Positions 4,749 through 61,000 of a stretch of DNA of 64,000 nucleotides are shown one piece after another. The notes beneath the pieces were generated by a model. The model was not told where the DNA came from and did no database searches. It saw nothing but the letters and a program-made list of their open reading frames with translations. Source of the DNA: Vampirovibrionaceae bacterium NZW_1234 (lineage in GTDB: Bacteria > Cyanobacteriota > Vampirovibrionia > Vampirovibrionales > JAGQHJ01); the NCBI GenBank assembly GCA_041697335.1, contig JBGUGD010000004.1:32001-96000 (forward strand). The letters run 5' to 3'. Both the position numbers and the translations under genes were made by a program. Position 1 is the first letter of the stretch. Every line of letters starts with the position of its first letter.

Positions 4749-6014
4749 CTAGAGGCCGTGGGTCAGCGGGGCGTTCTTTTGTTTGAACTCGGCATAGGAC
4801 ATTTGCCCATCCAGGGTTTTGCCGCCATGCTTGCGTAGACGATTATAGACATATTCACCGGCGTCACTGCAGGGGATTTTATTGCCGTCATGCCGGTATT
4901 CAATCAGTTGCCCACTGACCAGGTTCCGTAGTGCCTTGTCATGGTTCGGGTGAATGAACATGGGGATAGAGAATCGGCTTTTTTCCAGCTGTTGATCATT
5001 GCCCACCACTTTGTGTGAGGTTGAGCGCAAGGCATTGGGATGCCCTTCGGTAATGAGAGAAAGCATATCGCCGACATTCACAATGAGATCACCTACCTTG
5101 AAATCTCCCGGCTGCCATTTTGTTTCGTCCTTGGCTTCAACGTCCATCCATTGTCCGTCTTTTTTTAGGATTTGAAGTCCACCCAACGTGGCGGCCGGTA
5201 ACAAGGTGATGTAATTCATGTCATTATGGGCACCTGCGCGGATGACCTTGCCATTTTCATCCTTGTTGAGCCGGTCTTCTGCGGGAATGGGCGGGTAGTG
5301 GATGGAGCGCATCATATGGGAGCCGATTTTTTTGCCGCTGTCGTCCACCAGGGTGGATTTCAGATACCCGTTGTCATTCAGGAACAAGCCAATGGCATCC
5401 ATCAGTTGAAGGCCCACATCTTCCATCGATTGGTAGAGCTTATCGCTGGCGGCTTGGTAGTCAGGCACTTCTACAGGATAATCGTTCCGAGAACGCCCGG
5501 CTTGCCAAGCCTCTTTGGGATCCGGCGTGGTTTTTTTGCCATCCACAGTGCTGCCTTTGAGTTCACTTTTCATCGGGTAATACCCGCGTTGGCTGCCAAT
5601 TTCCGGGTGGTAATATTTTTTCTTGGTTGCTTCATCCAGGCCCACAACCTGGCCCAGAAGCTTGTAATTTTCTTCGAACAAGCTTTTGGGGATGCCATGA
5701 CCGGTGACGGCCACAAATCCATATTCTTTGAAGCTGTCTCCCAGAGCTTTGGCGAAGGCGGCCTTTGCTGTGGCGTCTCCATTGACGAACTGTGACAGGT
5801 CGACGACGGGAATTTTTTCAGCGGTTTTTGGAGCGCTTGAAAAGCGCACGTGCTGAACGGCGACCAGCCGATCACTAAAATGATGGCGGGACAGGGAATG
5901 CAGTGAACCAGGTGATCCCCCTGGATTCTTCGGAGTCGAGATGGGCTTTAGCGGACGCCGTTTGGGTGCCATGGCGTGTTGCAATGCTTGGGTTGAGGTA
6001 AAAGAAACGTTCAT
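4749..6014 (-). CDS. 2OG-Fe(II) oxygenase (isopenicillin N synthase-like) with ~60-aa N-terminal extension
   Basis: IPVVDLS, HxD (HND), NVGDML, H (TSHKV) and RFS motifs; GGGGAG RBS before ATG 6014. Confidence 0.88.
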   Translation of the reverse strand: MNVSFTSTQALQHAMAPKRRPLKPISTPKNPGGSPGSLHSLSRHHFSDRLVAVQHVRFSSAPKTAEKIPVVDLSQFVNGDATAKAAFAKALGDSFKEYGFVAVTGHGIPKSLFEENYKLLGQVVGLDEATKKKYYHPEIGSQRGYYPMKSELKGSTVDGKKTTPDPKEAWQAGRSRNDYPVEVPDYQAASDKLYQSMEDVGLQLMDAIGLFLNDNGYLKSTLVDDSGKKIGSHMMRSIHYPPIPAEDRLNKDENGKVIRAGAHNDMNYITLLPAATLGGLQILKKDGQWMDVEAKDETKWQPGDFKVGDLIVNVGDMLSLITEGHPNALRSTSHKVVGNDQQLEKSRFSIPMFIHPNHDKALRNLVSGQLIEYRHDGNKIPCSDAGEYVYNRLRKHGGKTLDGQMSYAEFKQKNAPLTHGL

Positions 6015-6275
6015 GTAGTGCTCCCCCTGAAGATTGATAGCAGTGGATCGCATGAGCGAATCCTAGGGCCTTATGTATCGTAAACAGAGGTTATGTTCAA
6101 GTTGTTTTTTAAAACTAGGTGCAAAAAGTCTCAATAGGGCAAGTTTGTGGCAGGGGAATGTCCGATGGGGTTTAATCAATATTTACAAAATAACACTAAA
6201 ATCCTTAAGAATTTTTTAATATATATAGATTCTTTTCGGTAGGAACTATAATAAATGTTGGGAGGACACTAGCCA

Positions 6276-6461
6276 ATGAAAGACCAGGCTTCTCACAAAA
6301 AATCGGCTAAAAAAAGCAAGTTTATCAACGACAAGCATTTTAAAGGCTACCAAAAACCTAAAATGGTTGAAGCAGCGCAAGATTTGCTCTGCAAGGAAGA
6401 AATTTCCGAAGAAGCTTTCTTGGGCGCTCAAGCGATTTTGCTCTTGAACGACATGATTTAG
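6276..6461 (+). CDS. Small hypothetical protein (basic N-terminus, acidic C-terminus)
   Basis: GGAGG RBS, AT-rich upstream region, and a hairpin at 6470-6489 followed further on by T-runs. Confidence 0.65.
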   Translation: MKDQASHKKSAKKSKFINDKHFKGYQKPKMVEAAQDLLCKEEISEEAFLGAQAILLLNDMI

Positions 6462-6892
6462 ATTTGTCAGCGACGGCTCTTACCGTCGCCGTTGTCCTAT
6501 GTTCGGTTTTTTTATTTTTTTCTCGCTTTAAGTCTCTCTTTTCTTCTCATTTAAAAATTCAAATCGATGACTCCCTGATTTGGGGTTTTAGCCCTGCGCT
6601 AAAAAACCATGGGGAGGACACGTTGCTTCTTGGCGCCCTTGCGATAAAAGGTCTGTGAGAGCCTAAGGACAACAGAGATGTTCATGGTCTGTTCTCAGGT
6701 CTTCTGAGAGCTGGTTCGAATGTGTGTGATATGTGTGCCCGGGCGACCTCACCAGAGGTCGCCCTCAATTTTTGTGGTGGGGCAGCAGTGTCATCAGCAG
6801 GTTTCATAATAACTTCGGGGGAGGACAAATAAGGGGCTTTTGGGCATAATAGTCATGCATTACCCCTGTGCACCTGTGAAGGAGTTCATTCC

Positions 6893-7591
6893 ATGAAAGT
6901 TGAGCAGAGCAAAGGCCAAGGCATTTGGATTCTTGCAGTTGCTTTGGGGCTTGCGGTTTTCTGTGTCTTTGCTTACCAGCACCTCACTTTAAACCATCAT
7001 GTTCGAAGGGATCTTAACTCCATGTTGGGTCCGCAAGCTCAGGCAGCGCCATTTCCTTATAAACCGTTCCCACATCCGCCTGCTCCCCAACATCGTTCAG
7101 AGCCTTTTCAATCCGAATCCTCCGGTTCTGTTTTCGATGATCTCCTGACCTTAAGCGATTCGCCGTTATTTGACCTGGGGCACATGGCTCAGGCGATGCC
7201 AACGGTGCAGATTGTAGAAACGCCAAAAACCTATGATGTGATTGTTCCGTTAGCCGATCCAAACGATGAAAAGTCTGTGACCATTGAGGTCAAACCCCAC
7301 CATATACAGGTGGCCGGGCAGCTGACCCTGGTGTCTCCCAATGGCAAGCAGGTGTTGGGACAATCGAGTTTTATGAAATCCATGACCCTATCCGAGGAAG
7401 TGCTGCCTGCCAGCATGCGTCGGGAAATAAAGAACCGCCAGTTGCATGTGACGCTTCTGAAAAAACATCCCGGTCGTCGGGCCCCCTCGCCTGTGCCTGA
7501 AAAGCTACAAACGCCCCCGTCAGGTACCGCGCCAACCCTTCCTCAGCAGCTGGAAGAAGAACTTCAGAACCAGCCGAAGAGTTTTATTTAG
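6893..7591 (+). CDS. Hsp20/alpha-crystallin-like domain protein with N-terminal membrane anchor
   Basis: N-terminal hydrophobic helix; the C-terminal half (ETPKTYDV...SSFMKSMTL...QLHVTLLK) resembles an alpha-crystallin domain; AAGGAG RBS. Confidence 0.65.
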   Translation: MKVEQSKGQGIWILAVALGLAVFCVFAYQHLTLNHHVRRDLNSMLGPQAQAAPFPYKPFPHPPAPQHRSEPFQSESSGSVFDDLLTLSDSPLFDLGHMAQAMPTVQIVETPKTYDVIVPLADPNDEKSVTIEVKPHHIQVAGQLTLVSPNGKQVLGQSSFMKSMTLSEEVLPASMRREIKNRQLHVTLLKKHPGRRAPSPVPEKLQTPPSGTAPTLPQQLEEELQNQPKSFI

Positions 7592-60065: not shown

Positions 60066-60212
60066 AATCCCTGCTGGTTTGGTGTTAATAGCGGGCTATA
60101 CTTGGCTCAGAAACAAGGAATGGGACAAATTGGTGATAAAGCAAGAATCGTAAAGAGAGAGTGAGAAGAACACGGTCTGAGCCAATCCTGAGGACGTCAG
60201 AATATCTCTATT

Positions 60213-60282
60213 TGAGAATAATTCTCATAAAGCTTATGAGAATTATTCTCAATTGTCAAATTGTTATTGATAATGATTCTCA
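60213..60282 (-). promoter_or_regulatory. Three Fur boxes overlapping a sigma70 promoter
   Basis: 7-1-7 boxes TGAGAATaATTCTCA (60213-27), TGAGAATtATTCTCA (60237-51) and TGATAATgATTCTCA (60268-82); minus-strand TTGACA(60259-54)-17 bp-TAAGCT(60236-31). Confidence 0.88.
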
Positions 60283-60385
60283 TTTTCACTTATCCTAGCC
60301 TTCAGTATGATGTGAATAAAGTCCGTAAAGATGGCGGGTTTCTGAGGAGACAAAAATCGATGCATCAACGTACGGGGAAGACACT

Positions 60386-61000
60386 TTGATGAGCTTAGTT
60401 TCAACCACCACTCCCGGGGCTATGCTAAGACCAGTAAGGCCATCTATGCGGTTTTTAGGTCATGAGCGGCAATCTCACTATTTAAATAAGTTTCATACAT
60501 TTGACACAGGCAGCAGCGATGCCTTTAAACGGATTTACCAACTGGCCCATCACCCTCAAGGCCTGGGTTGGCACATTATTTTGGCCTATGTCGAAGCGGC
60601 CAAGCATCCGCCTCTTTTGCCTTTGGTCATTGAAAACTTTTCTCTTCAAGTATTGCTGTCCAAGGCTCGTCGGCGTAAAGATCAAAGTGTGATCGATACG
60701 ATCAAGGAACGCTTGGAAGACTTTCATGTGGCGACTGAAGCCTTTGTGACAGGCAGGCCCATTGAAGAAGTGGCAAAGAAGCGCCAAGAGGATGTTTTGG
60801 CCAAGACCAAACATGAACTTCCTTTTGACCCAGCAACGCTGCCCGAACGACTAGAGTTCAGTGAGGAAGAGCATCAACTCAAAAAAAGCTCGGTACGGAT
60901 TCTGACTAAGGTATTTCAAAAGATGCGCGCTAGTCTCATGCGGCGTTTTCCAGAGCAGCAACCTGAAAAGTCATCTGAAACCAAACCTCAACAAGCTTAA
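60386..61000 (+). CDS. Hypothetical protein with N-terminal MRFLG leader
   Basis: 204-aa ORF with a GGGGAAG RBS-like sequence. Confidence 0.7.
   Translation: MMSLVSTTTPGAMLRPVRPSMRFLGHERQSHYLNKFHTFDTGSSDAFKRIYQLAHHPQGLGWHIILAYVEAAKHPPLLPLVIENFSLQVLLSKARRRKDQSVIDTIKERLEDFHVATEAFVTGRPIEEVAKKRQEDVLAKTKHELPFDPATLPERLEFSEEEHQLKKSSVRILTKVFQKMRASLMRRFPEQQPEKSSETKPQQA

Follow-up and report, generated by a model that had tools for sequence, protein, structure and literature searches.

An acid-poor N-terminal leader closed by a phenylalanine motif on about a tenth of the predicted proteins of a Vampirovibrionaceae bacterium, and a flagellum-derived type III system as its candidate reader

A stretch of 64,000 nucleotides from Vampirovibrionaceae bacterium NZW_1234 (contig JBGUGD010000004.1, positions 32,001 to 96,000; G000:C7:32001-96000 in our numbering, hereafter the window) encodes unrelated proteins that begin with a similar leader, rich in Ser, Thr, Pro and Arg, poor in acidic residues and closed by a short motif centred on Phe. 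Genome-wide counts confirm that this leader is real and that about a tenth of the predicted proteins carry it. Judged from its sequence properties the leader is probably an export tag of some kind, and we lean, with less assurance, towards a tag acting at the protein level that would be read by a second, flagellum-derived type III system encoded in the same genome.

The NZW_1234 genome (G000) comprises 3.70 Mb in 41 contigs at 50.4% GC and is 94.75% complete; proteins were predicted with a self-trained gene caller, with totals of 2322 in the first tripeptide test and 3088 in later counts. The initial annotation of the window had claimed a leader shared by unrelated proteins and had set motif enrichment at N-termini as one of its tests, and both held. 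RFG was the most N-terminally enriched tripeptide, present within residues 5-70 of 140 of the 2322 proteins compared with 34 within residues 100-165 (p 9e-17). The pattern [VPLIT]-R-F-[GSAQKR] occurred in the first 60 residues of 271/3088 proteins, whereas shuffled sequences gave a mean of 43.8 (maximum 53 in 20 shuffles) and the last 60 residues gave 56. In the refined motif, [V/P/L/I/T]-R-F-[G/S/A/Q/K], Arg stands at 86% and Gly at 58%, and the Phe lies at a median of residue 22 (5-95%: 6-55). Proteins scoring at least 10, the working threshold, on a position weight matrix (PWM) built on this genome, with leaders whose acidic residues do not exceed 12%, form a working set of 303, which falls into 268 unrelated clusters, 190 of the proteins being without a paralogue. 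The set includes known false positives (FliW, chorismate synthase, uracil-DNA glycosylase and Usp), and the true number of leader proteins is about 230-300.

Acidic residues make up 3% of the leaders (background 11%), Ser and Thr together 21%, Pro 10% and Arg 7%. A Sec-like hydrophobic core was detected in 4/303 leader proteins as against 381/2785 others, the Tat pattern S/T-R-R-x-F in 1/303 leaders and the prepilin pattern G-F-x-x-x-E in 0/303, in keeping with the earlier claim that the leader is neither a Sec nor a Tat signal. Position 3 is I, V or L in 129/285 leader proteins compared with 646/2785 others (p 9e-15), an enriched but not universal feature. A Shine-Dalgarno-like site precedes 214/303 leader starts and only 24/295 downstream Met codons, which rules out wrong start calls as the source of the leaders and disposes of the objection that the true starts lie downstream of them. 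As the codons used at the motif cover all common synonyms, the signal sits in the protein and a DNA-level element at this position is ruled out. Two further ideas were rejected: recent horizontal origin of the tagged genes, since their GC3 is the same as that of the others (0.565 and 0.556), and D-x-V-x-L-S, a FlgM-like motif, as a general form of the tag, since it occurs in only 10/303.

The candidate members in the window, their motifs and one gene pair previously counted with them are as follows.
4749..6014, minus strand: 2OG-Fe(II) oxygenase of 421 aa with an add-on leader of ~64 residues (Pfam DIOX_N at residues 68-180, and 2OG-FeII_Oxy).
5838..5849, minus strand: leader motif of the oxygenase, V-R-F-S at residues 56-59 (VRFSS, F58), PWM 16.3.
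5865..5879, minus strand: upstream element of the oxygenase leader, F-S-D-R-L at residues 46-50, fitting the gate-recognition pattern F-x-x-x-hydrophobic.
39625..41316, plus strand: order-specific membrane protein of 563 aa with the leader, PWM 10.7, no Pfam match.
39676-39687, plus strand: motif of the 39625 protein, L-R-F-G (LRFGS, F20), PWM 10.7.
58270..58677, minus strand: orphan of 135 aa, borderline member, PWM 8.5, no Pfam match, with P-L-F-G at 58609-58620.
60389..61000, plus strand: orphan of 203 aa, borderline member, PWM 8.4, no Pfam match, with M-R-F-L-G at 60446-60460.
54258..54605, plus strand: orphan of 115 aa, weak member, PWM 0.1, strong Shine-Dalgarno site, no Pfam match.
54291-54305, plus strand: Y-R-F-E-G of the 54258 orphan, at best a variant of the motif, PWM 0.1.
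25006..27899, plus strand: pair of M16 peptidases (Pfam M16) with P/S/M/Y/Q-rich N-terminal extensions and no RF motif, PWM -15.2 and -6.0.

The N-termini of the five main examples quoted in the initial annotation are all present; those of the 6014 and 39625 genes are clear, the 58677 and 60389 genes are borderline and the 54258 gene is a weak variant. The examples it had offered as weaker fail the PWM (42571, -5.2; 16142, -10.2; 25006, -15.2; 26496, -6.0), and the M16 pair lies outside the tag set. The oxygenase leader had been described as an addition in front of the conserved domain, and so it is: DIOX_N begins at residue 68, and those short homologues that were inspected have nothing in front of the domain. 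Its F-S-D-R-L element recurs by eye as H-F-[SAG]-x-x-[LIV] in the long oxygenase orthologues P0274-P0291 and is family-specific.

Among orthologues the motif is retained at the junction with the mature domain and the remainder of the leader is unalignable. Of 33 homologues of the 39625 protein 29 have an intact N-terminus, and 22 of these 29 carry the pattern; the other seven have, by eye, variants (RYG, GFG, HRFG, or a motif beyond residue 75), and the orthologues in family f2 (families are defined below) are tagged. Oxygenase homologues of at least 400 aa have the pattern within the first 70 residues in 12/18 cases, compared with 18/132 of the shorter ones. The citrate synthase homologues P0122, P0123, P0132 and P0209 have RFG leaders of their own; of the other citrate synthase homologues inspected, 5/6 are leaderless copies of 375-389 aa. 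In low-GC Gastranaerophilales-like metagenome loci, many of them from gut assemblies, the tag was found in 25/580 non-redundant proteins as against 36/1977 decoys (p 9e-4), in the forms VSFG, INFTS, TSFKG, PAFTG and PSFRG, the Arg being replaced by S, N or A there, and by S, N, A, Q or H across low-GC relatives as a whole. What stays constant in the tag is the Phe, flanked by a small residue on its C-terminal side and by a hydrophobic residue or Pro two positions towards the N-terminus; Arg is lineage-specific. The view of a lineage-wide tag on unrelated enzymes and membrane proteins is supported.

Genomes of the class were grouped into families f1-f11, and tag frequency was estimated in 200-kb samples per genome by a loose rule, f6, f8, f9 and f10 being represented by one genome each. 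The frequency is 10% in G000, 5% in the f3 sample and 4% in the f7 sample (7/177 versus 9/787 decoys, p 0.016); two f5 genomes (3/168 and 2/164) and the single f10 sample do not rise above background. Simple 3-mer tests on these 200-kb samples gave no signal; the samples are under-powered, as the lineage variants surfaced only on inspection and with the loose rule. A first metagenome scan found nothing; the four sequencing runs in which at least half of the sampled words turned up come from hot springs or microbial mats, and the source may be among them.

A Pfam scan of 173 of the 303 tagged proteins left 114, two thirds, without any family, and the matched remainder are mostly catabolic or salvage enzymes and proteases. 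The enzymes include citrate synthase, malate and glutamate dehydrogenases, acyl-CoA dehydrogenase, enoyl-CoA hydratase, aldehyde dehydrogenase, alpha-amylase, 4-alpha-glucanotransferase, guanylate kinase, NAMPT and adenosine deaminase, and the proteases FtsH-like, Lon, ClpP, ClpB-like, PepN, M16, S8, trypsin-like and calpain-like members. The PrkA-YeaH-SpoVR trio is also among the matched cargo; its operon (L027:7-6150; G000:C5:195.8-204.7 kb) is tagged as a whole, PrkA, SpoVR and YeaH each having a leader, and is adjoined by a second PrkA-like gene and a tagged ClpP. Resemblance to paralogues suggests that the unscanned cargo includes isocitrate dehydrogenase, thiolase, PRPP synthetase, NadD, RtcB and an aminotransferase. 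Extra tagged copies stand beside leaderless housekeeping copies for citrate synthase, isocitrate dehydrogenase, malate dehydrogenase and glutamate dehydrogenase, and likewise for guanylate kinase, thiolase and PRPP synthetase (some named by paralogue resemblance). As many cargo enzymes need NAD, CoA or ATP, they would, if exported, act inside another cell, and since many of them in addition duplicate a leaderless housekeeping copy, we propose that the cargo would work within a prey or host cell.

This cargo is like organellar metabolism (TCA cycle, beta-oxidation, starch, FtsH/Lon/Clp), and an R-F followed by G, S or A resembles an R-2 cleavage site. A leader that mimics a mitochondrial or plastid transit peptide and is cut after R-F by a processing peptidase of the host, which for the long leaders could add to type III export, is nevertheless very improbable. 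The resemblance to transit peptides drawn in the initial annotation holds for composition, both being S/T/P/R-rich, acid-poor extensions before a mature domain, and is otherwise weak: the Phe lies at or before residue 12 in 84/303 leaders (at or before residue 20 in 144/303), so that the leader is often too short, the helical amphipathic moment of 151 long leaders shows no excess (0.478 versus 0.483 shuffled), the terminal motif is fixed, and the Arg is dispensable across the low-GC relatives.

G000 holds two type III export sets, of which set 1 is the flagellum. Set 2, recognised through Pfam/NCBIfam matches and paralogue pairs, is distributed over three clusters and one gene pair.
G000:C32:8.7-21 kb (L009): two FlgF/G-like genes, flgB, flgC, lytic transglycosylase, fliE, fliF, a 385-residue gene, fliH, flhA and fliI.
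C8:66-70 kb: SctQ/FliN-like gene, fliO, P, Q and R.
C30:50-53 kb: fliJ-like gene, one further gene and a third rod-like gene.
C29:178-181 kb: flhB, followed by a FliA-like sigma factor.

Set 2 has the full export core, namely FlhA, FlhB, FliP, FliQ, FliR, FliH, FliI, FliF and a C-ring protein, and its FliJ2 was named through the G031 orthologue. FlhB2 has the site N-P-I-H where FlhB1 has N-P-T-H. FlhA2 is 37% identical to FlhA1; among 80 returned records it is 62-67% identical to 13, mostly Gastranaerophilales, Melainabacteria and Vampirovibrio, whereas identity to the remaining 67 does not exceed 51%. In a FastTree phylogeny with midpoint rooting of 44 of 90 sequences, with one representative per family and four titled records, FlhA2 forms one class-wide clade (support 1.0) that takes in neither FlhA1 nor the injectisome/SctV-type clade, with one subclade of f1, f2, f3, f4 and f7, the last grouping with Gastranaerophilales records, and another of f6, f8 and f9. 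FlhA2 scores 678 bits on the FlhA model versus 586 on SctV, both under the cut-off, and the FliE and FlgB/C-like genes of set 2 set it apart from an injectisome, which has an SctV-type gate and no FliE, FlgB or FlgC. Set 2 also falls short of a motile flagellum as defined by flagellin, canonical FliG and stator. The 385-residue gene in the FliG position shows a weak FliG likeness (Pfam FliG_M at E 6e-5 in 1/16 members; PDB profile E 0.086), and a fold search with its protein gave no PDB match. MotA/ExbB, a family that mixes the two proteins, has one match each in f7-f9, as in most non-flagellated f5 genomes; G000 has two longer matches to this family (C10:135998 and C4:11930) besides a short ExbB-like one.

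Across 121 genomes surveyed for FlhA and flagellin, families with flagellin mostly have two FlhA. In f7, f8 and f9 FlhA was found in 44/44 genomes, almost always single and closer to FlhA2, and flagellin in 0/44; f5 and f10 have neither (0/25). FliP, FlhB and the sigma factor follow the FlhA pattern across families, and the sigma gene lies beside flhB in many genomes. As f7 has set 2 only, the flagellar gate cannot be the general reader of the tag. The possibility that the tag is read by the ordinary flagellar gate of set 1 draws on the presence of both sets in the organism's own order, on FliD paralogues that begin with an FG motif and on the ability of flagellar gates to export non-flagellar proteins (PMC3459982), yet the tag occurs in f7, whose 25 sampled genomes have one set-2-type FlhA and no flagellin, and flagellins, FlgK and FlgL have no tag, which makes this reading most improbable.

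The initial annotation had the leader routing proteins to a secretion system. Of the routes it named, type III or flagellar export is the likeliest in view of the second export set, and the type IV secretion system (T4SS) fell away: searches of this genome, which is 94.75% complete, detected neither VirB4 and VirD4 nor the VipB and contractile-sheath families, and accordingly T4SS, type VI secretion (T6SS) and contractile injection systems were rejected as the exporter. An export signal read by Tad, by a type IV pilus (T4P)/secretin system or by an unrecognised exporter would accommodate the Tad cluster (C2:140-150 kb) and the T4P/type II secretion (T2SS)-like cluster (C19) of this genome, the secretins found in 61/61 genomes of the class and the imperfect co-occurrence of tag and set 2. 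Secretin-type systems, though, take periplasmic substrates, which normally need Sec or Tat signals that the tagged proteins lack, and f5, in which the tag does not rise above background, has secretins too, so that we regard such an exporter as distinctly unlikely. The two secretins of the genome lie in the Tad and T4P clusters; the Tad/Flp pilus cluster is compact (G000:C2:140.7-150.2 kb) and its secretin has 848 residues.

The leader genes further share a promoter-like motif. The three-part DNA motif (C)TAGCAA-N9-TTGAGGGG-N-TTTAT, ending at a median of 44 nt before the start codon, is found upstream of 76/303 leader genes versus 60/2785 others, and in a held-out test on operon-first genes upstream of 29-37/135 leader genes (21-27%) versus 55-64/2022 others (3%). 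Of the strong sites, 51 lie before genes outside the set, and at 29 of these 51 the gene has a looser leader, compared with a background of 631/2022. There are about 130 sites genome-wide; a degenerate form of the pattern matches 19 times in G000, where the reversed control matches 0 times, and turns up again in f2, f3, f4 and f7 (17/25 f7 genomes). Its outer boxes (TAGCA ... GGnTTTA) loosely resemble, at similar spacing, the Synechocystis SigF promoter with TAGGC at -32 and GGTAA at -12 (PMC2532724), from which the motif differs by a strong central TTGAG box; the assignment to a sigma factor is a prediction. The sigma factor linked to flhB2 has a second paralogue (G000:C16:18950-19630) present only in f1, f2, f3, f4 and f7, families where the tag is seen, and this paralogue is a candidate reader of the motif, which would make the motif a candidate mark of an alternative-sigma regulon across several families.

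Two copies of the motif in the window precede genes for membrane proteins.
41428..41463, plus strand: promoter-like motif in a strong copy (DNA PWM 24.6); the 41508 gene, whose product lacks an RF leader, starts 44 nt further on.
11551..11586, plus strand: weaker copy before the 11668 membrane-protein gene (DNA PWM 12.4).

The products of 11668-12726, 41508-42044 and 58674-60065 are lineage-specific membrane proteins with neither a Pfam match nor the tag, and are possible membrane-side parts of the same programme. The leader is absent from the 58674-60065 protein and from its homologues (60 of 120 listed homologues inspected); this family has 597 homologues, the named ones being Gastranaerophilales or Melainabacteria-like. 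An N-terminal extension of a second type, with much Pro, Tyr, Ser, Met and Gln but no RF, occurs in the window at 25006-27899 and at G000:C14:7905-9158, C8:150349-151875 and C25:67248-68303, and several of the genes with this extension carry the same promoter motif. A weak site at 9285-9320 lies near the window gene 9383-10327, which encodes a Gly/Asn-rich repeat protein like a beta-roll adhesin (no Pfam match at E 1e-5), and the window gene 51464-52948 encodes a 494-residue protein with many GGFP repeats, Pro/Gln-rich segments and no Pfam match.

We propose the following scheme. A stage-specific sigma factor would turn on the tagged genes. The tag opens with Met, frequently has a hydrophobic third residue and runs through 0-60 disordered residues, few of them acidic, to [V/P/L/I/T]-R-F-[G/S/A/Q]; it would dock the unfolded cargo at the gate of set 2, directly or via a chaperone, and a conduit derived from the rod would take it out. 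The nearest known signal is that of early flagellar subunits, described by Bryant et al. 2022 (PMC8983047) as having two parts, an N-terminal hydrophobic signal and an FlhB-binding gate-recognition motif. The tag shares with it a non-Sec, disordered N-terminus, a hydrophobic residue near position 3, a Phe-centred motif further inward and the proposed flagellar-type gate, but has hydrophobic/Pro-R-F-G in place of FlgD FLTLL, from which the pattern F-x-x-x-hydrophobic was generalised in this analysis, has no hydrophobic preference at F+4 and stands on ~300 non-flagellar proteins. F-x-x-x-hydrophobic upstream of the motif was not in excess in long leaders (26/135 versus 20-31 shuffled). The tag would work like a type III signal and yet, failing the gate-motif pattern and the spacing, falls outside that signal class. 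In the set-2 transglycosylase (L009:10045-10656; orthologues L049, L051, L055, L106 and L190) F-x-x-x-L is seen by eye ~40-55 residues in, which is what a canonical gate-recognition motif would look like.

Flagellar systems have repeatedly been exapted for secretion (Abby and Rocha 2012, PMC3459982). Set 2 resembles the non-flagellar type III systems and the Myxococcales intermediate of that study in keeping the core export proteins without flagellin, and in the proposal of secretion instead of motility, but differs in retaining FliE, FlgB, FlgC and rod proteins, absent from the Myxococcales systems. Set 2 is an old paralogue found alongside a complete flagellum and would therefore represent a separate derivation. 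For Vampirovibrio chlorellavorus, Soo et al. 2015 (PMC4451040) assigned hydrolase delivery to a conjugative T4SS and cited spikes that reach from the attachment pad into Chlorella; the model of enzymes passing into prey through pad and spike is a close parallel, although G000 has no detectable VirB4 or VirD4. Supplementary file 10 of the same study lists both gene sets for the cultured V. chlorellavorus, with two flhA, flhB, fliP and fliF, and two motA/motB pairs are also listed; Table S3 arranges the set-2 clusters as they stand in G000 and files both sets as flagellar, a FliI/YscN ATPase appears under a different identifier in another supplementary table, and the main text contains 'type III' 0 times. 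Gastranaerophilales without a full flagellum are reported to retain flhB, fliI and flgG, postulated to serve secretion (bioRxiv 10.64898/2026.04.24.720558); the passages of that preprint covered here mention no duplicated system, signal, cargo or promoter. Our literature searches, whose coverage left out most subscription papers, brought up neither the tag nor a second type III system for this class, and the tag, for which there is a matching promoter-like motif and a plausible dedicated machine, is apparently undescribed so far.

Several observations weigh against a tag read by set 2. The mismatch between tag and set 2 in the samples from f2, f6, f8 and f9 is real: where FlhA2 is present the loose rule gave no excess in f2 G005 (2/156), f6 G089 (1/178), f9 G072 (1/163) or f8 G035 (5/169, p 0.22), and it is conceivable that the f6/f8/f9 subclade may use another signal. 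The f3 sample is borderline (9/180, p 0.05), and the f4 sample (8/163) is not significant and has few convincing cases. As the families are few and related, the co-occurrence of tag and set 2 is not independent evidence. The spacing of 3-60 residues contrasts with at least 30 in early flagellar substrates (PMC8983047), and a hydrophobic residue at F+4 is found in 82/303 (27%) versus 39% in the background. Structural set-2 substrates have no tag, the exception being the transglycosylase, whose orthologues lack it, and set 2 yielded neither an outer-membrane channel nor a needle or translocon, although no family-level search was aimed at the latter two. The promoter motif was not found upstream of set-2 genes, and single matches occur in 7/23 f5 genomes, which have no type III system. 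A leaderless paralogue exists for only 70/303 tagged proteins; GlpD, PepN and NAMPT are single copies, each tagged and without a paralogue, and the sole aconitase found besides LeuC (G000:C20:394-3000) is tagged. In the aconitase an extension of 105 residues, with the tag and an aromatic-rich segment, precedes an internal Met106, before which no Shine-Dalgarno site was found.

Tagged sole-copy enzymes such as this aconitase speak for an intracellular tag, that is, a degron, a protease-processing site or a localisation signal on a stage-specific regulon, set 2 then exporting other things. A common promoter defines a regulon with or without export, the cytoplasm is where enzymes that depend on cofactors work best, ATP-dependent proteases are numerous among the tagged proteins, and processing could fall to the M16 pair at 25006-27899. 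The tagged extras beside leaderless housekeeping copies, the two thirds of the scanned cargo without a Pfam family and the background frequency of the tag in sampled genomes without set 2 argue the other way, and on balance we consider an intracellular role unlikely.

If the leader is indeed a tag read by set 2, the consequences would reach beyond this genome. The tag can be scored and predicts ~300 cargo proteins in one genome, with the promoter marking the stage of their production, and so sharply defined a type III signal would offer an uncommon way into substrate recognition. Set 2, for its part, would mark a second, independent passage from flagellum to secretion system, one in which the rod proteins were kept. 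A candidate machine would be supplied both for the killing of algae by Vampirovibrio and for the use of partial flagellar genes by gut Gastranaerophilales. We can only tentatively suggest, as a possibility we would not count on, that Vampirovibrionia evolved an injection machine of their own from a duplicated flagellum, independently of the injectisome, which recognises a short sequence-defined tag and with which the predator loads its prey with ~10% of its proteome under one alternative sigma factor. Were this so, the prey would be an external digestion vessel fed with extra enzymes of beta-oxidation, the TCA cycle, starch and NAD salvage and with ATP-dependent proteases, the short tag would set this cargo apart from known type III effectors with their diffuse signals, Vampirovibrio would need a new model in place of the T4SS one, and non-motile gut Gastranaerophilales would also inject or secrete into a partner. 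Should the leader prove to be an address for set 2, these predatory and gut bacteria would have an unrecognised route by which hundreds of enzymes reach other cells.

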